Positions 3,897 to 28,707 of a stretch of DNA of 28,707 bases are shown in pieces. The notes under the pieces are model-generated. The model had not been told where the DNA came from. It made no database searches and saw only the letters and a program-made list of their open reading frames with translations. Position 1 is the first letter of the stretch. Each line of letters starts with the position of its first letter. Source of the stretch: Lentisphaerota bacterium (GTDB lineage Bacteria; Verrucomicrobiota; Lentisphaeria; Oligosphaerales; PUNB01); NCBI GenBank assembly GCA_003552565.1, contig PUNB01000262.1:1-28707 (forward strand). The letters run 5' to 3'. The position numbers and the translations under genes are program-made.

Positions 3897-4082
3897 GGGC
3901 GTTTTTCTAGAGGTTATGCGGAAAGGTTGATGTTCCGATTTGTGTTGGTTTAACCATTGTCTAGAACCTTGTCTCGCACCTTGTCGGGAACAAAAAACTG
4001 AATCGAAAAAAGTGCGCGACAAAGTGTTGTAACACCCGATTCTCTCTCGGGGTGCCCGGCGCGTCGCGCCACGAACCGGCGC

Positions 4083-4616
4083 TTATGTGAGGCTTCGCGT
4101 TGTTGGGCACGTTAAACTGCCGGAGTTCCAGCCGCTGGAGACTTGCTCGGCGGAAGGCTGTGTGTCGTTATCACGCCGCGGCTCCGGCGGTTCCAGCTTC
4201 ATTATTCCCGAGGCGGAAAAAAGAATCATACCGATAATAATCAGGGACAAGACGGCGTATCCCCACACGCCATTGCGAGCGAAGGCGTAGATAGTGGGTA
4301 TTAGTCCCCAGATGACAACCGTGGTTCCCAAAGTCAAACCGAAAATTATCAAGCCGTCCCCGGTAAAGAGTTCATTCCACCAAAGGGAATGTATAGAGGG
4401 GATAGAGCCATGCAGGATTTTCCAAATTTCCGGACCTGAGACTCCCTCGAAGATCATGGCGAAAGTGAAGTAGGGATTCAAGGCTGTATCCTCAGGACGG
4501 AGGACGGATATAATGATTCCGATCAAACAGATAACGCAAGTGGATAAGGTTATCCAATATACCACTTGTCCATAAATTCTGTTGTAAAGAGGCGCCACTG
4601 GTCTGTCTTCAGTCAT
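4083..4616 (-). CDS. DUF1634-family small membrane protein, partner of TauE/SafE
   Basis: 177 aa with 4 hydrophobic helices. It overlaps the upstream TauE/SafE gene by 8 nt, a known conserved pairing. The C-terminal about 20 codons run into a repeat/hairpin, so the true stop is uncertain. Confidence 0.55.
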   Translation of the reverse strand: MTEDRPVAPLYNRIYGQVVYWITLSTCVICLIGIIISVLRPEDTALNPYFTFAMIFEGVSGPEIWKILHGSIPSIHSLWWNELFTGDGLIIFGLTLGTTVVIWGLIPTIYAFARNGVWGYAVLSLIIIGMILFSASGIMKLEPPEPRRDNDTQPSAEQVSSGWNSGSLTCPTTRSLT

Positions 4617-5819: not shown

Positions 5820-5897
<78 letters not shown>

Positions 5898-5961
5898 TAT
5901 GCGCCCGCGGAAGGTGCCTCGCAAAGAGCGGTTACTTTAACTGATAAATCGGCAAAGTCAA

Positions 5962-12153: not shown

Positions 12154-12471
12154 ACACCTGACCGGGGCAGACGTGATTCGGCCGGGGCGTAATGTGTCAG
12201 TCATAGGAGCACGAATTTCCCACCTTTCACTGAAGCATTACTCCGAAACTGTCCATGCGCTTGCAATTACACGGATGCCAATTACTATTTCTGTTCCGGG
12301 GTATCTGGCGCCTTGCGCCGGGGGCGGGGCTTATCTGAAGCACAGTTTTGAATATTGAATGGTGAATATTGAACTTGGAATTTTTACCTGAAACCTGACA
12401 CCAGAAACCAAGCTGTTACCCATTCGTTTTGAGCAAGAGTCGCGTTTCATTCCAAACCAGCGGTGTAAAAA

Positions 12472-12678
12472 ATGATCAGCGAGAAGTTGTTATCTATCCT
12501 CGGGTGTCCGGCTTGTGAGCAGCGCCCCGCTCTTACACCGGTAAAAAAAGACGAGGGAGAATATCTGGCCTGCGAACAGTGCGGCCTGCTTTACCCGATT
12601 CGGGATGACATTCCGATTATGCTGGTTGATCAGGCGCTCCGTCCTTCCAAGGCGGCGGAGAGTTCCAAGCCTGAATAA
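12472..12678 (+). CDS. Trm112-like (DUF343/YcaR) small zinc-finger protein
   Basis: 'LLSILGCPACEQ...LACEQCGLLYPIRDDIPIMLVDQA' is the canonical Trm112p/YcaR motif. Confidence 0.75.
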   Translation: MISEKLLSILGCPACEQRPALTPVKKDEGEYLACEQCGLLYPIRDDIPIMLVDQALRPSKAAESSKPE

Positions 12679-12917
12679 TTCACGAGCCAAGATTACCGTC
12701 TGGCCACTTGCAGACTAAATAGAAAAAAAATAACATAACATGACAAAAATAAAACCACTGCGCGGACGGATTGTTCCGTCCGAATAAAATTCAAACCTTG
12801 TCCAGAACCTGAATCTATTTGGACTTTGGTTCAGGAGAAGGTTAGTTCCGTCATCCTTTGGAACGACTGTGTAATTGTTTCTAAACCGAAAACCCAAAAA
12901 CGCCAAGGAGCATAAAT

Positions 12918-13274
12918 ATGAGCACTGGTTATCATGAAGCAGGTTTAAGTCAGAAAACTCAGAATATCCATCGGGCCATCGCCAGTTTGCAGGAAGAACT
13001 GGAAGCGGTGGACTGGTATAATCAGCGCGCTGATGTGACTGAGGACGCGGAATTGAAAGCGGTTCTTGAACACAACCGCAATGAAGAGATTGAGCACGCC
13101 GGTATGCTGCTTGAATATCTCCGTCGCAATATGAGCGAGTTTGACGAGCAATTGTCGACCTACCTGTTTTCCACTCTGCCGATCACCCAGATCGAAGAGG
13201 CTGAAGAGGGCGGGGAAAATGACGCTCCCGGCGACGTCTCCAGCTCTGGCTTGGGCATTGGGAAAATGGATTAG
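12918..13274 (+). CDS. encapsulated ferritin-like protein (EncFtn/Flp) cargo with C-terminal encapsulin targeting peptide
   Basis: 'EELEAVDWYNQRADVTEDAELKAVLEHNRNEEIEHAGMLLEYLRR' is the EncFtn di-iron motif region. The Gly-rich linker ends in 'SSGLGIGKMD', resembling the family-1 cargo-loading peptide (GSLGIGxL). Confidence 0.8.
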   Translation: MSTGYHEAGLSQKTQNIHRAIASLQEELEAVDWYNQRADVTEDAELKAVLEHNRNEEIEHAGMLLEYLRRNMSEFDEQLSTYLFSTLPITQIEEAEEGGENDAPGDVSSSGLGIGKMD

Positions 13275-13346
13275 CTCAGTTCTTGATGCCTTGGTAGTGA
13301 ACTGATTTATTGCTTTGTATTATCAAAAAACATAAGGAAATGAAAG

Positions 13347-14153
13347 ATGGATATTTTAAAAAGATCACTGGCTCCAATCACTGACAGCGCCTGGAATGAG
13401 ATTGATCAGGAAGCGGCGCGCGTTTTGAGAGGCAATCTGGCTTTTCGCGGCCTGGTGGACTTCGTCGGACCCGAGGGCTGGGAGAAGGCGGCGGTCAATC
13501 TGGGCACCATGAAAGAAGGCGGCAAGCAGCTGGTGAAAGGAGTTAACTGGGGATTACGTCAGGTTCAGCCTTTGACCGAAATCAGAGTGCCCTTTTCTCT
13601 TGATATATGGGAGTTGGACAACTTGGAACGCGGCGCCCAGGCACCCGATCTGGACGCGGTCACGCAGGCGGCTCAACAAGGAGCGGTCTTTGAGGAAACG
13701 GCTGTTCTCAACGGTTTTTCCGAGGCTCAGATCACCGGCATCGGTCAGGCGGCCGGCAAACCGATCGGCATGTCCAAGAACCCAGCCGATTGCCTCGCCG
13801 CTTTTGAAGAAGGCATCGTGGCCTTGCAGAAGCAGGGAATCAACGGTCCATACCAGCTGGTTCTGGGAACGGAAGCCTATCAAATGATAATGGCCGGTGA
13901 TGATAAAGGTTATCCTCTGCACAAGCGCGTACAGGAATTGACCGGAACCGACATCAAATGGAGTCCGGCAGTGATGCAGGCGGGGATTATTTTAAGCTGT
14001 CGCGGCGGTGATTATGTCTTCACCTGCGGCCAGGATTTTTCCATCGGCTATCATTCACATTCAACCAAGGCGGTTAATCTGTTTTTAACCGAGTCTTTTA
14101 CTTTCCAGGTTCTGGAACCCGCGGCGGCGGTCAGTATATCCTGGAAAAAGTGA
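13347..14153 (+). CDS. family-1 encapsulin nanocompartment shell protein (linocin M18-like, HK97 fold)
   Basis: Collinear similarity to the T. maritima encapsulin: 'MDILKRSLAPITDSAWNEID', 'WGLRQVQPLTEIRVPFSLDIWELDNLERG', 'GPYQLVLGTEAYQ', 'GYPLHKRVQELTG', 'GQDFSIGYHSHSTKAVNLFLTESFTFQVLEP'. Confidence 0.9.
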   Translation: MDILKRSLAPITDSAWNEIDQEAARVLRGNLAFRGLVDFVGPEGWEKAAVNLGTMKEGGKQLVKGVNWGLRQVQPLTEIRVPFSLDIWELDNLERGAQAPDLDAVTQAAQQGAVFEETAVLNGFSEAQITGIGQAAGKPIGMSKNPADCLAAFEEGIVALQKQGINGPYQLVLGTEAYQMIMAGDDKGYPLHKRVQELTGTDIKWSPAVMQAGIILSCRGGDYVFTCGQDFSIGYHSHSTKAVNLFLTESFTFQVLEPAAAVSISWKK

Positions 14154-22870: not shown

Positions 22871-22910
22871 AAAAAAAAGAGCGTTCACCTTCGCGAGGGG
22901 GTGAACGCTC
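22871..22910 (-). terminator. rho-independent terminator of the secretin operon
   Basis: On the minus strand, an 11-bp perfect stem GAGCGTTCACC/GGTGAACGCTC with a 10-nt loop is followed immediately by T8. It lies 28 nt downstream of the secretin stop. Confidence 0.8.
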
Positions 22911-22937
22911 TAACAATAGCTATCTCATTTTTTCAGA

Positions 22938-25493
22938 TCAACGTCGAAAATCGGGAACTCCCGGAAGCGGCTGATCACGCACGGGCTGACCGGACGGATC
23001 CACCAAGTGTGCAGTTACAAAAATTAGCAGGTTCCGTTTTTCCGACTGCTTGCCCCTGCTCCTGAAAAGCCGTCCCAGAAGCGGTATGTCACCAAGTATC
23101 GGAACCTTGTCCTCAAACTCGAACAATTCTTCACCGATCATGCCGCCAAGGACCACTGTTTCACTATCGTAAACCAGCACTTGCGCATCAACTCTGCGAC
23201 GTTCAATTATCGGCATGGACGCTCGATATGATACACCGGTTCCTGGGTCCACAGTATCCAATTCTGTATCGTAACCAAGGAATTCAACTACCTGCGGGGT
23301 TAATTGCAAGTTGATAGTATAATTGTCCGGTTCAACTTCCGGTGTCACCTCCAGAATAACCCCCATCTCCTCTGCGTCTCCGAAAACCGGGGTTGAAGGT
23401 ATTACACTCTGTATCTGACCATCATCGTCAAACGTAAGTTCAGGTTCATTCCAATCTATCGGGAAATAACGTTCAGTAACAATTCTCATCGCTGCCGGCT
23501 CACCAGAAATAGTTGTAACTTTGGGGGCGGAAAGTATATCCGCTTTGTCGGATCGCTCCAAAGCGTTCAGTACCACGTCCAGTTCAAGATTTCCCAAGAC
23601 GGCAGCCGCCGAGAGGAAGTCTCCAGTGGCGCCTGTCGGCAAGGCATCTGAAACCGTACGAACTCCCGTGGTTAAATCGGACGCGTCAATATCCAGCCGC
23701 CTTGACCCGGAGCTGCTTTCGTAAGCTGTATGCCCCTGAGCGATAGCCCACTGCATTCCCATCTCCTGCAAAGCGTTCTGTGATACTTCAACAAACTTGG
23801 CTTCAATCATCACCTGCGTCGGAGTCGCCGCCAGTTCAGGAATCAGCTCTTCAATCCGCTGAATATTTTCAGCAGTATTATAAACCACAAGCCTTCCCGT
23901 GCGAGTATCGTAACGTATGCTTGAGCCTTCAGGAAATGACACTCCAAGGTCCCGGAAATAAGCCTTCACGTCATCCGGTGACACTTCCTCTCGTTCGGCA
24001 ATATCGGTATCCATCCCCCAAGGATCGTCATCATCTCTATCGTCAGTCCGCTCCCGCCTGAAAATACCCGGAGTGATAGAGAAAAATCGGGTGTACATCT
24101 CGCCAGCCGGCAATTCACGATCAGAGATGATCACCGCCCTCGGATCGATTACATAATGCAATCCGGCGGACATGGCAACAAACCGGATCACGTCCCCGAG
24201 CGGGACATTTTCCATATTCAATGTCAAAGCACCTATGTCCTGCACTTCCTCCGGCTCGTCAAAGTCGTCGAAATCATCAAAGTCATCCCTGTCGGGACGT
24301 CGTTCCAGTCGTGGAGCTGCATCAGGGTCATCGGCCAAATTCAACACGAAATTAACTCCTTCATCGTCAGGATCGAGTTCCCGACTCTGCCTTTGCAGAT
24401 AACCAACCACCTGATGAATGGTCGCTTCTTCAAATTCTACCCGCGGAATAATTATTTCACGCAGTTTCTGCCGAATGGCGGCATCCGGCGGGGCCTCTCT
24501 CTCCACCGGCCGGCCAGGCTCTACCATTTCCTCTTCCCTCTCCAGCGGCTTCACCGGCTGCGACCAAGTCCAAGTGGTCTCCGCCAGCATCTCTTCGCGA
24601 GTGGCTATCCGCCTTTCCTCGCCTTTATCATCGACCTTTTCCGCGATGCGACGCAGATAGCGCACCGCCACTAATGAATAGGGGTCTCGATCCAGAACCT
24701 CCTCAAATTGCTCCTTCGCCTCCATATAACGGCCGTTTTCATAAAGAATCTTCGCCTGTTCTTTCAGCACATCAATGTCGAACTCACGTTCCTCTTTCTC
24801 GGGGTCAACATCCTCCGGCCTTGTACGTGTCTGAAATTCAATATCCCGTCGCTGTTCTTCAAGCCTTTCCGCCATTCTATTGAACTCATCGGCTCTTCCC
24901 GGCAAGGTTTCGGCGGCCTCGCTCAGAACGTCCTGAGCATCATCCCACCTAGCCACATCCGCAGCCTCGCGAGCCTCTCTTTTTATGGTTTGCACCCACT
25001 GATTGTAAGCATCCCCGACGGAACGCTCGGTTGCATCAATGCGATTTCTCACATCCTCATCGACGCGGCTGACATTCTGTAATATCTCCTTGGCTTCTTG
25101 ATACTTATCAATCGCTTCCTGAAACTCGTTATCACGCAGATTCCGGTTAGCCCGTCTTTGCAAATCCTTGGCTCTTTCGAGCTGCTCCTGACGACGCACC
25201 TCCTCTTCACGGGAGAGGCGTTCATGCTCAGGCGCGTCTTCATCGACTTCCACGTCGTCAGGCTCATCGACCTCCACTTCAGGATCTTCAGCGACCTCAT
25301 GCTCTTCCGGTTCTTCAGCTTCCGGAGCCGCTTCAACCTCGGCGGGTTCAGGAGCAGCGTCCCGATCAAAGTCCCAGATGTCATTGTTATCATCACCTGA
25401 TACCACACCTGGACTGAATACCAGTGCCAGCAAAAAACAAAACCCAGCCGCAACCGCTAATTCACTACGTTCAATTAAAGCATTTTTCCGCAT
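22938..25493 (-). CDS. PilQ/GspD-family secretin with long acidic coiled-coil N-terminal region
   Basis: C-terminal secretin domain 'VLVYDSETVVLGGMIGE...VPILGDIPLLGRLFRS...RNLLIFVTAHLV'. Signal peptide 'MRKNALIERSELAVAAGFCFLLALVFSPGVVSG'. GGAGG RBS lies 7 nt before the ATG at 25493 (the ORF-track start 25526 is less likely). Confidence 0.85.
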   Translation of the reverse strand: MRKNALIERSELAVAAGFCFLLALVFSPGVVSGDDNNDIWDFDRDAAPEPAEVEAAPEAEEPEEHEVAEDPEVEVDEPDDVEVDEDAPEHERLSREEEVRRQEQLERAKDLQRRANRNLRDNEFQEAIDKYQEAKEILQNVSRVDEDVRNRIDATERSVGDAYNQWVQTIKREAREAADVARWDDAQDVLSEAAETLPGRADEFNRMAERLEEQRRDIEFQTRTRPEDVDPEKEEREFDIDVLKEQAKILYENGRYMEAKEQFEEVLDRDPYSLVAVRYLRRIAEKVDDKGEERRIATREEMLAETTWTWSQPVKPLEREEEMVEPGRPVEREAPPDAAIRQKLREIIIPRVEFEEATIHQVVGYLQRQSRELDPDDEGVNFVLNLADDPDAAPRLERRPDRDDFDDFDDFDEPEEVQDIGALTLNMENVPLGDVIRFVAMSAGLHYVIDPRAVIISDRELPAGEMYTRFFSITPGIFRRERTDDRDDDDPWGMDTDIAEREEVSPDDVKAYFRDLGVSFPEGSSIRYDTRTGRLVVYNTAENIQRIEELIPELAATPTQVMIEAKFVEVSQNALQEMGMQWAIAQGHTAYESSSGSRRLDIDASDLTTGVRTVSDALPTGATGDFLSAAAVLGNLELDVVLNALERSDKADILSAPKVTTISGEPAAMRIVTERYFPIDWNEPELTFDDDGQIQSVIPSTPVFGDAEEMGVILEVTPEVEPDNYTINLQLTPQVVEFLGYDTELDTVDPGTGVSYRASMPIIERRRVDAQVLVYDSETVVLGGMIGEELFEFEDKVPILGDIPLLGRLFRSRGKQSEKRNLLIFVTAHLVDPSGQPVRDQPLPGVPDFRR

Positions 25494-25636
25494 TCTTTCG
25501 CCTCCGCAAATTAGTTTTATCTTCATTCGTTTCTGTTCAATATTATAGGCACATTTTTCGCAAAGCCGTCAATATAACGGCATTTCCTGGCTTGTCCAGT
25601 TCAAGCCAACATTTCTTTTTACTCCATTGTCAGCTA

Positions 25637-26656
25637 TCACCAGTCAGCATCCAGCATTTCTTCTTCTTCAAATTCTTCCGGCAGCTCCAGCTGGTGTTCC
25701 GGCAGGGGCTGTTCTTCGCGCGGTCTTCTGCGACCAATTTCAATGATTCTTTCCGGATCCTCTTCCGGCCGCAGATGCACTGTTTCCGCGTCCCGCACCT
25801 CCACCTCGAAACTCCGCCGGGTTTCGTCAACATCCTCAAAATCAAGTGTATCGTTGGTGCTTACAGTGAAAGTTTTCTGAAACCTGTGATCCTGGGGGTC
25901 GGTCAACATCAGCCGCACACGCCAGGGTCCTACCTGAGCTTCTTCTCCGCGTACCAGCGTAACCGTTTCTCCATCCGGGCCGGTCAATTCCAATTCCGAC
26001 ACATCCACCGTTTCTTCCGCGCGAATACGCGGATTGTAGCGGGTTTCCTCTTTGTGTTCAAGACCGGTGATTTCAAAATCTTCACCATCCACATTAATGG
26101 TTTCGCCGACCCGCCTGAATCTGGTTCTTCGCCTGCCGTCAGCTCCACGCACGGAAAGCTGCAGATCCCACTCTTCCACGGGACGATCATCGAAAACAGT
26201 AACCCGTCGAAGTTCAGCCCCGAAGGTCTGCCTGCGGGCGCGGTGGATAAACATACGCCGCCTCAGAGGCGCCAAGTCATCATCCGGGTCTTCCCAAACT
26301 TCTTCCTGATCCGTATCGCAATATGGACATACTTCGGCATCCACCGGCAGCCAATGTTCACAATCTCGGTTAATGCACCACGCTTTAGCCGCCGGCCTGG
26401 AAGCGGTCGCATCTTCCGGCATATCCGGTTCCGCCCAGTCGACACTGGGTGCTTCCACGTAACGGTCCGCCTCGAAATCGGCGCTGTCCAATGCTGTAAG
26501 TTCTTCACCAACCGCTCTTTCCGGCAGTGACTCGCCCATGGCCACTTCCTCGTGCAGCTCTATCGACTGCGACAATAGCATAAACCCCCATACACACACG
26601 AAAATGATAAAAACCGACAGAATAATTTTTTCCCAGTGCTGTGTAATAAAATTCAT
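25637..26656 (-). CDS. hypothetical membrane-anchored protein with Cys4 zinc-ribbon and highly acidic C-terminal region (secretin-operon member)
   Basis: N-terminal TM 'IILSVFIIFVCVWGFMLL', then 'CINRDCEHWLPVDAEVCPYCDT', then Glu/Asp/Arg-rich sequence. The antisense 368-aa ORF was rejected (F/R/H-rich, mirror of the acidic codons). Confidence 0.5.
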   Translation of the reverse strand: MNFITQHWEKIILSVFIIFVCVWGFMLLSQSIELHEEVAMGESLPERAVGEELTALDSADFEADRYVEAPSVDWAEPDMPEDATASRPAAKAWCINRDCEHWLPVDAEVCPYCDTDQEEVWEDPDDDLAPLRRRMFIHRARRQTFGAELRRVTVFDDRPVEEWDLQLSVRGADGRRRTRFRRVGETINVDGEDFEITGLEHKEETRYNPRIRAEETVDVSELELTGPDGETVTLVRGEEAQVGPWRVRLMLTDPQDHRFQKTFTVSTNDTLDFEDVDETRRSFEVEVRDAETVHLRPEEDPERIIEIGRRRPREEQPLPEHQLELPEEFEEEEMLDADW

Positions 26657-26675
26657 TTCCTAATATCTCCCGGAT

Positions 26676-27554
26676 TTACTCCACATCAAACTCTATAAAA
26701 TGAATCGGCATCTCAAAGCTCACCGAATCATCGAAACGAACCAAACGTCGTTCCCTAACGGCCTCCTCTTCTGAATCAACTTCCCGATCTCCGCGCCGAT
26801 CATCTCGGGAACGGCTTCGGTCGCTTCGCCGATCACTGTCCCGCTGGATTTCCAGTTCCTCTCCGCGCCATTGAAAATAAGGAACATTGAAATAAAAATC
26901 CTGTTCAGCGTGAAGCTGATTGATCAAACTACGTATATTCCCCAACGAGCCCCGCAGTTCCAGATTAATTCGCATAACTCGATAACCGTCTTTATGAATT
27001 TCCCTTATCCCCGCTGGTCGATGCAAGGATCTCACCTCTTCCACACCGCTTCCCGCAACAAGCTCAGCCACCCTTTCCACCACCCGCAGCTGGCGCATCA
27101 AAGCAGGCGCCTCACGTGACGCCTCCGGCAAACCTGGTGCCTGGATAATCTCTTGAAAAGAAAACCCGCGGGCATCGTCATGAACTTCCACACCCGCCTG
27201 TTCAAATTCGGATCTAAGACTTCTAGCCACCGAGTCCAGCTGATTCTTAGCTTCGACCGCACTAACGGATTCGACTTCCAAAACAGAACGCTCCGCCAGA
27301 GCCTGTTTTAATTTTGACAGTTCATTTTCGAGCTGTTCAAGGTTTTCTCTGGCCTGTCGCAAATTCTCGTCAGTAACCCCAGGGCGTCGCTCGGCGACCC
27401 GGGAAAAATAGCTCTGATGGTCGGAATACTCCTCAGCCAGCTCTTCAACCTCGCTGCCAATCCGGCCGGAGACTGTCCACAAAGCCACAGCCAGTATCAC
27501 ACAAACCAGCAAAAATACAACGAAGCCTATATTTCTCTTTAATATATTCAGCAT
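26676..27554 (-). CDS. PilO-like type IV pilus assembly membrane protein (TM + coiled coil + PilO-like fold), Arg/Asp-rich insert
   Basis: TM 'IGFVVFLLVCVILAVALW', then coiled coil 'ENLRQARENLEQLENELSKLKQALAER'. 'MRINLELRGSLGNIRSLINQLHAEQDFYFNV' resembles the PilO C-domain. Low-complexity 'RDSDRRSDRSRSRDDRRGDRE'. Confidence 0.5.
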   Translation of the reverse strand: MLNILKRNIGFVVFLLVCVILAVALWTVSGRIGSEVEELAEEYSDHQSYFSRVAERRPGVTDENLRQARENLEQLENELSKLKQALAERSVLEVESVSAVEAKNQLDSVARSLRSEFEQAGVEVHDDARGFSFQEIIQAPGLPEASREAPALMRQLRVVERVAELVAGSGVEEVRSLHRPAGIREIHKDGYRVMRINLELRGSLGNIRSLINQLHAEQDFYFNVPYFQWRGEELEIQRDSDRRSDRSRSRDDRRGDREVDSEEEAVRERRLVRFDDSVSFEMPIHFIEFDVE

Positions 27555-27779
27555 AGTCCTAGCTCACTCTAAGTTTTTTATGGCTTTTTCTTAAAACAAA
27601 TGTTTATTAATAAAAGATTCTTTTCTGAAATTTCATCGGTAACAGCTTGGTTTCAGGTTTCTGGTGTCAGGGTATTAGTTAAATCCCAAATCTAAAATCA
27701 CAAATCTCATTGATGGAATATGGTTCGGGACAAAGTTGAACCCAGAGACACGCGAAACACCTTTTCGGATACCCTCAGG

Positions 27780-28707
27780 CTAGTATTCCAAGTCAATCGG
27801 CTCTTCGAGTCTTGCCCGGATAGTGAACGTTCTCAGATTAAACACCTGATCCGACACTTCGTATTCATCAAAATCGACCCGATCCTCAACGAAAACAGGC
27901 AATCTTCTCAACCTTGACAAAAGTACCTGTTCCGGACCGCGGCCGTTATCCGGAACCTCTTCAGGCGCCTCAATATCCTCGAGCTCATCGGCCGCCTCTT
28001 CGAGTTCTTCCCGCGCTAACTCTTCAAGCTCTTCATCCCCAACGTCTTGTCCGTCAATTCTAACTCCCGGCGGAAGTGAAAGACTGTGGCCGCGAACTGC
28101 TATGCCGGTGATTCTGCCTCTCGGGCCGCTTTCTTCCAGTTCAATCTCATCAGGATCTCTTTCTTCATCCTCGCGCCGCGGTTCATCGTCACGATCACGC
28201 CTCCTGCTGAAAGGACTGGCGGGAGCGTCGCGCTCGGGCCGGCGTTCCTCTTCTTCCTCTCTCAAATCCTCAAAAACCGGCCTGAATTCAGTGAACCACA
28301 ACCTTCCGGGTATTTCCGCTTCCACGGAATTAACCACCCGCACCCAATCTTCGCGTCTTCTCAGCAGGCGGTTCAATCGCTGGTACTGATCCTCGACATT
28401 GCTGATCTCGCTCTCCACCCCGCTCAATTCGCTCTCTTTCTCTTCCAGCTCTTGGCGCTGTTCCCGGAATTGTTCCACCACCGGCTCATAAACCTGAGCC
28501 ATGTACATATTGCTGAACAAAGAGAAGGTCAACAGCAAAAGTACGCACAAAGCCGCCGCTCCCAGCCATGTCTTCTTCTGCTCAAAAGCCACTAGTCGAC
28601 GTATGCGCCGCGGCAGGAGATTAACCTCAACCGGACAGGCCCCTCGATAACGCAGCGCCAAACCAACCGCCTGACTGAACCCATGGGCCTCGTTTTCCAA
28701 TCTTTCA
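27780..28707 (-). CDS. PilN-like pilus assembly protein, possibly fused to an upstream PilM-like domain. The 5' end is outside the window.
   Basis: The ORF is open to the window end. 'VNLLPRRIRRLVAFEQKKTWLGAAALCVLLLLTF' is a PilN N-terminus (INLLP motif + TM), then a coiled coil. The preceding 'GFSQAVGLALRY' resembles a PilM C-terminus. Long acidic/Arg tail. Confidence 0.55.
   Translation of the reverse strand, partial: ERLENEAHGFSQAVGLALRYRGACPVEVNLLPRRIRRLVAFEQKKTWLGAAALCVLLLLTFSLFSNMYMAQVYEPVVEQFREQRQELEEKESELSGVESEISNVEDQYQRLNRLLRRREDWVRVVNSVEAEIPGRLWFTEFRPVFEDLREEEEERRPERDAPASPFSRRRDRDDEPRREDEERDPDEIELEESGPRGRITGIAVRGHSLSLPPGVRIDGQDVGDEELEELAREELEEAADELEDIEAPEEVPDNGRGPEQVLLSRLRRLPVFVEDRVDFDEYEVSDQVFNLRTFTIRARLEEPIDLEY

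Follow-up and report, generated by a model that had tools for sequence, protein, structure and literature searches.

Genes for a probable, divergent Akkermansia-type (Amuc_1098-1102) pilus-like envelope complex at the end of a Lentisphaerota contig

At one end of contig PUNB01000262.1 of a Lentisphaerota bacterium (assembly GCA_003552565.1), four co-directional open reading frames (ORFs) on the minus strand resemble components of pili and secretion machines, which raises the question of what kind of envelope system they belong to. The window analysed in this study is the entire public record of this contig, 28,707 bp, and the four genes are numbered here in the order of their transcription, from the partial gene 1 at the contig end to the secretin gene 4. 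Since the window is the whole record, gene 1, which runs off the contig end, could not be extended upstream, and exact-sequence look-ups with the secretin and with gene 3 returned no second contig. The likely reading, in our view, is that the region forms the distal end of an operon encoding a type-IV-pilus-like complex of the Akkermansia type (Amuc_1098-1102, MUL2) that spans the envelope, and the homology, the domain folds and the conserved gene order that lead to this reading are set out below.

With reference to the literature, the proteins of the Amuc_1098-1102 cluster are abundant in the membrane/cell-envelope fraction of Akkermansia muciniphila (PMC5332112), and the cluster defines MUL2, which is reported to be of importance in acquiring mucin (bioRxiv 10.64898/2025.12.30.696933; PMC12418764). 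MUL2 has been proposed to build a pilus for particle attachment, its synteny is conserved in aquatic Akkermansiaceae and other Verrucomicrobiales, Amuc_1102 is described as pilin-like, and amuc_1099 and amuc_1100 are listed as uncharacterized (PMC13174399). Amuc_1100 is described as similar in structure to PilO/PilN (bioRxiv 10.64898/2025.12.30.696933).

Word-index homology searches found two to three close relatives each for genes 2 and 3, and an exhaustive profile search gave the wider family. The related loci number 27: the closest relative L003 (GCA_003551605.1), and, parsed with iterated hidden Markov models (HMMs), three loci reached via distant Amuc_1099 relatives and 23 loci from a metagenome scan seeded by a sub-family alignment. 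One secretin scan of genome contigs returned unrelated secretins only; among them was L001, a Myxococcota metagenome-assembled genome with a Pfam-verified pilM-pilN-pilO-pilP-pilQ operon, which served as the canonical pilMNOPQ comparator. L003 is 54-59% identical to the window protein by protein and has the same gene order: FloA, an Amuc_1102-family gene, a PilM-like protein of 640 amino acids (aa), an Amuc_1100-family gene, the gene 3 orthologue and the start of a secretin. Its Amuc_1102 gene passes NF042424 (91.5 against a cut-off of 55), and an Amuc_1102-like gene was also found in 16 other related loci. Across the related loci the genes never depart from the sequence (Amuc_1102-like), PilM fusion, Amuc_1100-like, Amuc_1099-like and secretin, and the window carries the corresponding 1101-1100-1099-1098 order on one strand. 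The initial annotation of this DNA, made from the sequence alone, had judged that the locus resembles the Akkermansia Amuc_1098-1102 cluster more than canonical pilMNOPQ, and the matches to the Amuc_1101, Amuc_1100 and Amuc_1098 family models, together with the order conserved in the 27 loci, agree with this.

What is left of gene 1 opens with the last ~20 residues of a PilM domain, after which come the NLLP motif and a transmembrane (TM) helix, then a coiled coil and finally a PilN-like core with acidic insertions. GFSQAVGLALRY and then VNLLPRRIRR follow each other in one frame, with neither a stop nor a restart before the PilN-like part, as the initial annotation had described when it proposed a PilM-PilN fusion. 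The NCBIfam model Amuc_1101_fam ('PilM-like pilus complex protein') matches gene 1 with an E-value of 2.1e-22 over profile positions 331-531 of 608, and the fragment shares 59% identity with the L003 protein (640 aa) over residues 332-640 of the latter. In that full-length orthologue, Pfam PilM_2 spans residues 10-350, TIGR01175 (pilM) scores above its cut-off, and Amuc_1101_fam gives 466 bits (cut-off 650). In 21 related loci, one undivided ORF, 582-641 aa long, encodes the gene 1 homologue. Positions 3-364 of the gene 1 family HMM match the PilM of L001, and positions 368-488 and 531-595 match its separate PilN (44.8 bits), in an alignment that takes in the NLLP motif together with the TM helix and coiled coil, and also the core motif 'LWLT'. 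The PilM-PilN fusion is thus real, visible in the window itself and a trait of the family, because the relatives carry it as one ORF, the fragment aligns past the end of PilM_2, and the family HMM matches both canonical PilM and canonical PilN.

Gene 4 was recognized as a PilQ/GspD-type secretin from the outset, and this is borne out by the Pfam Secretin match. It is the only one of the four genes that Pfam recognises (Secretin, Secretin_N and a marginal TPR), and its best-scoring model is NCBIfam Amuc_1098_fam (NF042912). Alignment with the L003 orthologue indicates that the protein probably starts at Met12 (position 25493), giving 851 aa. The claim that the N-terminal 450 aa replace the N0 and N1 domains has to be given up, because residues 362-844 align with the N0, N1 and pore domains of PilQ: a profile of 16 family secretins is colinear over this stretch with residues 663-1064 of the L001 PilQ (hhalign probability 99.6), in which Pfam places N0/STN at residues 664-731, and Secretin_N matches as well. 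By this alignment gene 4 keeps N0 and N1 (residues 362-575), with an acidic 31-residue insertion inside N0 (residues 395-432). An additional helical/TPR region, itself a feature of the family, takes up just the first ~360 residues, with TPR_2 and TPR_1 matches at residues 252-282 that lie below or just at the Pfam cut-offs; this extension is 54% identical to that of the L003 orthologue. An AMIN domain found no Pfam match in gene 4, and the helical/TPR region stands in that place.

As an observation on the secretins of the related loci, a second secretin paralogue lies directly after the first in 13 of them (named for this are L004, L005, L010, L012, L015, L017, L019, L021-L024 and L027), mostly of ~750-840 aa where complete; the window has its terminator at that point.

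Gene 3 had been described as a protein of no recognisable family with a TM helix and a Cys4 ribbon. The helix and the four cysteines (C94, C99, C110 and C113) are indeed present, and the Cys4 segment may be a zinc knuckle or hold two disulfides; the lack of a family was mistaken. A profile of gene 3 with two close relatives, searched against 1.84 billion cluster representatives, gave 102 proteins, mostly of ~400 aa; of the 82 that were aligned, 77 match NCBIfam Amuc_1099_fam (NF042425). The family has in common the N-terminus 'M-FLKRHYEKIIL', a TM helix, four conserved cysteines and, in the C-terminal domain, an invariant Trp. Gene 3 also sits at the operon position of the Amuc_1099 family, between the Amuc_1100-like gene and the secretin, and on this sequence evidence it can be assigned as a divergent Amuc_1099. 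An AF2 model built from the 82 sequences has a mean predicted local distance difference test (pLDDT) score of 85, rising to ~97 over the all-beta residues 130-310, which may form two tandem small beta domains. Against the PDB, Foldseek returned no significant match for this model; the top fold match was the GspC-GspD complex 3oss. The gene 3 profile did not match a PilP, and no lipobox was found in the protein, which is TM-anchored instead. In known systems, the HR beta domain of the GspC/PilP type docks onto the N0 domain of the secretin. Gene 3 occupies the pilP position and its presumed partner, N0, is present in gene 4; it is probably the PilP/GspC equivalent that carries the secretin-docking HR domain.

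Two DxDxDG thrombospondin-type-3-like (Ca-binding) repeats follow the Cys4 motif in most Amuc_1099-family proteins, and 35 of the 82 gene 3 family members also match the NCBIfam throspo3_MtsD model. Unlike most of the family, gene 3 and its three nearest relatives are without this segment of ~55 residues, which the gene 3 lineage has lost.

Gene 2 displays a TM helix, a coiled coil and an alpha-beta-beta x2 core with a charged insertion. It belongs with the Amuc_1100 family by its match to NCBIfam Amuc_1100_fam (E-value 5e-17, 62 bits), and its alignment with a single PilO is weak but colinear (17.4 bits; hhalign P 0.0026). PDB sequence searches with gene 2, alone and as a profile, gave no match. 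The predicted structure, a low-confidence model, shows a PilO fold, and its best structural match is the PilO-fold Amuc_1100. The modelled fold supports a PilO-like assignment, in keeping with the initial annotation. A PilO fold implies an inner-membrane anchor, whereas the Amuc_1100-type protein is reported to be surface-exposed. The coordinates of the four genes and their parts are given in Table 1.

Table 1. Positions in the window of the four genes, their predicted domains and motifs, and the terminator
Feature	Position	Strand	Evidence or remark
Gene 1, only its 3' portion (308 codons), predicted to encode the C-terminal half of a PilM-PilN fusion of the Amuc_1101 type	27780..28707	-	Frame open to contig end
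Gene 1, C-terminal tail of PilM (actin-like) domain, in frame, ends GFSQAVGLALRY	28647..28706	-	Aligns to end of L003 PilM_2 match
Gene 1, PilN-type N-terminal motif VNLLP	28611..28625	-	Aligned with IEINLLP of Pfam-verified L001 PilN
Gene 1, single TM helix WLGAAALCVLLLLTFSLF	28515..28568	-	Read from translation; aligns with PilN TM segment
Gene 2, 292 aa, Amuc_1100-family PilO-like bitopic protein	26676..27554	-	
Gene 3, 339 aa, putative divergent member of the Amuc_1099 family with a TM helix at the N-terminus, a Cys4 knuckle and a C-terminal region that is all-beta	25637..26656	-	
Gene 3, Cys4 motif C94-x4-C99-x10-C110-x2-C113	26318..26377	-	Four Cys at least 90% conserved in 82 family members; pLDDT 82-87; predicted on the periplasmic side from the likely topology
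Gene 3, all-beta region, residues ~131-310, holding the HR-like domain	25727..26266	-	
Gene 4, 862 aa, Amuc_1098-family secretin	22938..25526	-	Amuc_1098_fam E 1e-123, 414 bits; Pfam Secretin 124 bits
Gene 4, N-terminal extension: signal peptide, acidic linker, ~350-aa helical/TPR region	24444..25493	-	TPR_2/TPR_1 matches, Amuc_1098_fam positions 20-490
Gene 4, N0 domain, residues ~362-500	24027..24443	-	hhalign to L001 PilQ N0; weak Pfam N0/STN, residues 426-483
Gene 4, N1 domain (Secretin_N)	23832..23984	-	PF03958, 28.9 bits against cut-off 28.2, residues 515-565; colinear with PilQ N1
Gene 4, pore domain	22998..23564	-	Pfam PF00263 E 4.6e-36, residues 655-843
Intrinsic terminator, operon end	22871..22911	-	12-bp stem, -20.2 kcal/mol, z -4.1 against shuffles, then U8

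The four genes form a real operon, with intergenic gaps of 225 nt (genes 1/2), 19 nt (genes 2/3) and 110 nt (genes 3/4), and a G+C-rich terminator hairpin that starts 26 nt past the gene 4 stop. A minus-strand operon of four genes closed by a strong terminator had been proposed at the start, and both the ORFs and the hairpin with its U8 tract lie where this proposal had them. It had also been said that no pilin, ATPase or platform gene lies downstream in the window; family annotation of the window ORFs found no pilin, PilB, PilC or PilT gene elsewhere in it.

As for the contacts between the proteins, the filament, its energy source and its physiological role, we infer an arrangement of the following kind. 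Gene 1 would join a cytoplasmic actin-like PilM to a coiled coil and a PilN-like core in the periplasm, the link being the NLLP motif and the single TM helix, and gene 2 would be its PilO-like partner, with a TM helix, a coiled coil and a ferredoxin-like core. Gene 3 would add an N-terminal TM anchor, the Cys4 knuckle and a GspC/PilP-type HR beta domain docking on the N0 of gene 4, itself an outer-membrane secretin of N0-N1-pore architecture with the family-specific N-terminal extension. Together, the four proteins may make an inner-to-outer-membrane scaffold for the working of a filament built of Amuc_1102-like subunits; the gene for these would be expected just upstream of gene 1, past the contig end, and the ATPase and platform would come from genes at other places in the genome. 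If A. muciniphila MUL2 is taken as a guide, the complex would serve the capture or uptake of, or attachment to, extracellular glycans or glycoproteins, a function that for the window cluster comes from homology. The role in mucin/glycan acquisition is known from A. muciniphila genetics only (bioRxiv 10.64898/2025.12.30.696933; PMC13174399).

Several observations weigh against an Akkermansia-type complex. The scores of genes 1, 2 and 4 with their NCBIfam models all stay below the curated equivalog cut-offs, at 79.7 against 650 for gene 1 (a partial protein), 62 against 180 for gene 2 and 414 against 750 for gene 4, and Amuc_1099_fam itself gave no direct match to gene 3. Since every NCBIfam score falls short, the window proteins are homologues and not close orthologues of the Akkermansia proteins. 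Of the Pfam searches suggested by the initial annotation, Secretin (PF00263) matched; PilN (PF05137), PilO (PF04350) and PilP (PF04351) gave no match in the window proteins at E<=1. The failure of PilN and PilO, named beforehand as grounds for rejecting these assignments, was overridden because the family-specific models, the profiles and the folds support them. The structure model of gene 2, built on an alignment of three sequences, is itself weak (pLDDT 54), and most of the PilM domain and any Amuc_1102-like gene fall outside the window. Near none of the 27 loci was a gene for an ATPase, a platform protein or a prepilin peptidase found, and filament assembly is something that we only infer. 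The window host is probably not a gut bacterium, unlike A. muciniphila, and mucin cannot be assumed by default to be the substrate of its system.

Different machines could be built from similar parts. In a type II secretion system (T2SS)-like exporter, for example one that secretes glycoside hydrolases, gene 1 would be GspL, gene 2 GspM, gene 3 GspC and gene 4 GspD. GspL, which has an actin-like domain, a TM helix and a ferredoxin-like periplasmic domain on a single chain, is architecturally a PilM-PilN fusion, the same architecture as that of gene 1; GspC is a TM-anchored HR-domain protein that binds the GspD N0, to which gene 3 may be compared (3oss being its top, not significant, fold match); and, of the two secretin models, TIGR02517 (GspD) gives gene 4 a better score, 179 bits, than TIGR02515 (PilQ, 152 bits; cut-off 284). 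However, the GspD score is far under its cut-off of 351, gene 3 is without the PDZ or coiled-coil C-terminal domain of GspC, and the cytoplasmic domain of the gene 1 relatives is PilM-type at the sequence level, being above the cut-offs for PilM_2 and TIGR01175, with no match to Pfam T2SSL in the full-length relatives at E<=0.1. The gene order is M-N-O-P-Q and not gspC-D...L-M; gspE, gspF and gspG-K are absent from all 27 loci, with no gspE, gspF or pseudopilin gene in the window or in the flanks of the related loci; and the associated Amuc_1102 is described as pilin-like (PMC13174399). We regard such an exporter as unlikely. An ordinary type IVa pilus (T4aP) alignment complex (pilMNOPQ), diverged in sequence and serving twitching motility or DNA uptake, seems more improbable still, even with a gene order identical to pilMNOPQ and the same order of functions as in Pseudomonas, Myxococcus and the comparator L001. 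Common to T4aP and to the window cluster with its relatives are PilM_2, the NLLP motif with TM helix and PilN core, the PilO fold, a probable HR domain at the PilP position and an N0-N1-pore secretin, by folds or profiles. In contrast, PilM and PilN are separate polypeptides in T4aP and are joined in one chain here, as in every relative; PilP is a lipoprotein, whereas gene 3 is held in the membrane by its TM helix, carries a Cys4 motif and lacks a lipobox; and PilQ has AMIN ahead of its N0-N1-secretin part, where the window secretin has a TPR/helical region. Furthermore, the Pfam models for PilN, PilO and PilP match L001 and not the window proteins, no pilB, pilC, pilT or classical pilin gene is linked to the cluster, and genes 1, 2 and 4 score best with the Akkermansia-specific models, with the gene 3 relatives matching that for Amuc_1099. 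The 'pilin' linked to the relatives is of the Amuc_1102 type and not a class III signal-peptide pilin.

It could finally be argued that these are chance reading frames or a decayed, functionless remnant, for which the 225-nt and 110-nt gaps, large for an operon, and the low-complexity acidic stretches of the proteins would speak. We give this practically no weight, as all four genes have significant family matches, the same-order orthologues in another assembly are 54-59% identical, and the frames are intact with a clean terminator after gene 4; the conservation data refute it. The parts of the window cluster would make a full scaffold between the two membranes, of the PilM/N-O-P-Q or GspL-M-C-D type. 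The cluster mixes a T4aP gene order and PilM-type cytoplasmic domain with a T2SS-like fusion and a probable TM-anchored HR protein that is likewise T2SS-like. A bolder and rather doubtful extension is that the Amuc_1099 family is the missing PilP/GspC-type coupler, and that the Amuc_1098-1102 module is a distinct class of type-IV-filament machine without its own ATPase, for the capture or import of polymers rather than export or motility, with the window as a hyper-acidic lineage without the Ca-binding repeats. The parts of such a module, just as tentatively, would be a GspL-like fused PilMN, PilO, a TM-anchored Cys4 and HR protein, a TPR-secretin and an archaeal-like pilin.

A divergent version of the Akkermansia complex remains the preferred reading. 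A. muciniphila MUL2 has the same gene order and, by the model matches given above, the same five families as the window and its relatives, and shares with them the fused PilM-PilN, the PilO-fold protein, the secretin with a long helical/TPR N-region and the absence of an adjacent ATPase. Unlike their counterparts in MUL2, the window proteins are very divergent and their extracytoplasmic parts are hyper-acidic, with charged insertions in the PilN-like core, the PilO-like core and N0. The four envelope-complex proteins (22938-28706) have isoelectric points (pI) of 4.35-5.05 and contain 19-25% D+E, compared with pI of about 5-5.7 and ~13% D+E for typical housekeeping proteins encoded on the same contig, such as HisD, FtsY and GlmM, and the excess lies largely in the insertions within the PilN-like, PilO-like and N0 domains. 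This acidity may be an adaptation of the periplasmic parts to a saline habitat.

Within the operon, the gap between genes 1 and 2 is long in the window (27555-27779) and in L003 (~240 nt; 4062-4300), compared with ~0-40 nt in the other loci. Its sequence is unlike that of the L003 gap and gave no Rfam match; in L003 the gap holds G+C-rich repeats as well as a 63-aa gene call that is probably spurious and that the window does not share. Between genes 3 and 4, in the 110 nt ahead of the secretin gene, a sigma-70-like site (TGGACA-16-TATATT, 10/12 matches, 25571-25608), overlapped by a 7-bp hairpin, could be an internal promoter.

The other annotated genes of the window are mainly housekeeping ones, including those for an MFS transporter, a glycosyltransferase, TauE, FtsY, NusB, lumazine synthase, a PLD-like protein, MreC, D-Tyr deacylase, a GHMP kinase, a PurO-like protein, HisD, fumarase, GlmM and an LbH transferase, besides an encapsulin gene and several ORFs without a family match. 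The encapsulin shell protein gene (13347-14153, plus strand; Pfam Linocin_M18, E 3.5e-78) has no ORF of at least 120 aa listed just upstream, in 12205-13346, that could be a cargo gene. The IMP cyclohydrolase-like gene (PurO, PF07826; 16875-17519, plus strand; E 8.6e-58) belongs to a type commoner in archaea than in bacteria, and a tRNA-Val(CAC) at 5830-5906 on the minus strand is the sole RNA gene detected in the window.

In summary, the locus is of a kind already described and named, and it is a divergent member of that kind rather than a new system. What this study adds is modest: the probable PilP/GspC-like assignment of the Amuc_1099 family, the evidence that the PilM-PilN fusion and N0/N1 are common to the whole family, the finding that the gene 3 lineage has lost the Ca-binding repeats, and the hyper-acidic extracytoplasmic parts. 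Taken together, the window and the 27 loci indicate that the core module is a complete PilM/N-O-P-Q-type scaffold, in which the PilM-PilN fusion and the TPR-secretin are invariant across the loci, whereas neither the Ca-binding repeats nor the second secretin is indispensable. The window also shows the module in a lineage so divergent that the curated annotation models cannot name it. The Amuc_1098-1102 proteins are among the most abundant envelope proteins of A. muciniphila, are needed for mucin acquisition and include Amuc_1100, an immunomodulatory protein; for Akkermansia itself, our data suggest that the HR domain may interact with N0, and the periplasmic part of gene 1 with gene 2.

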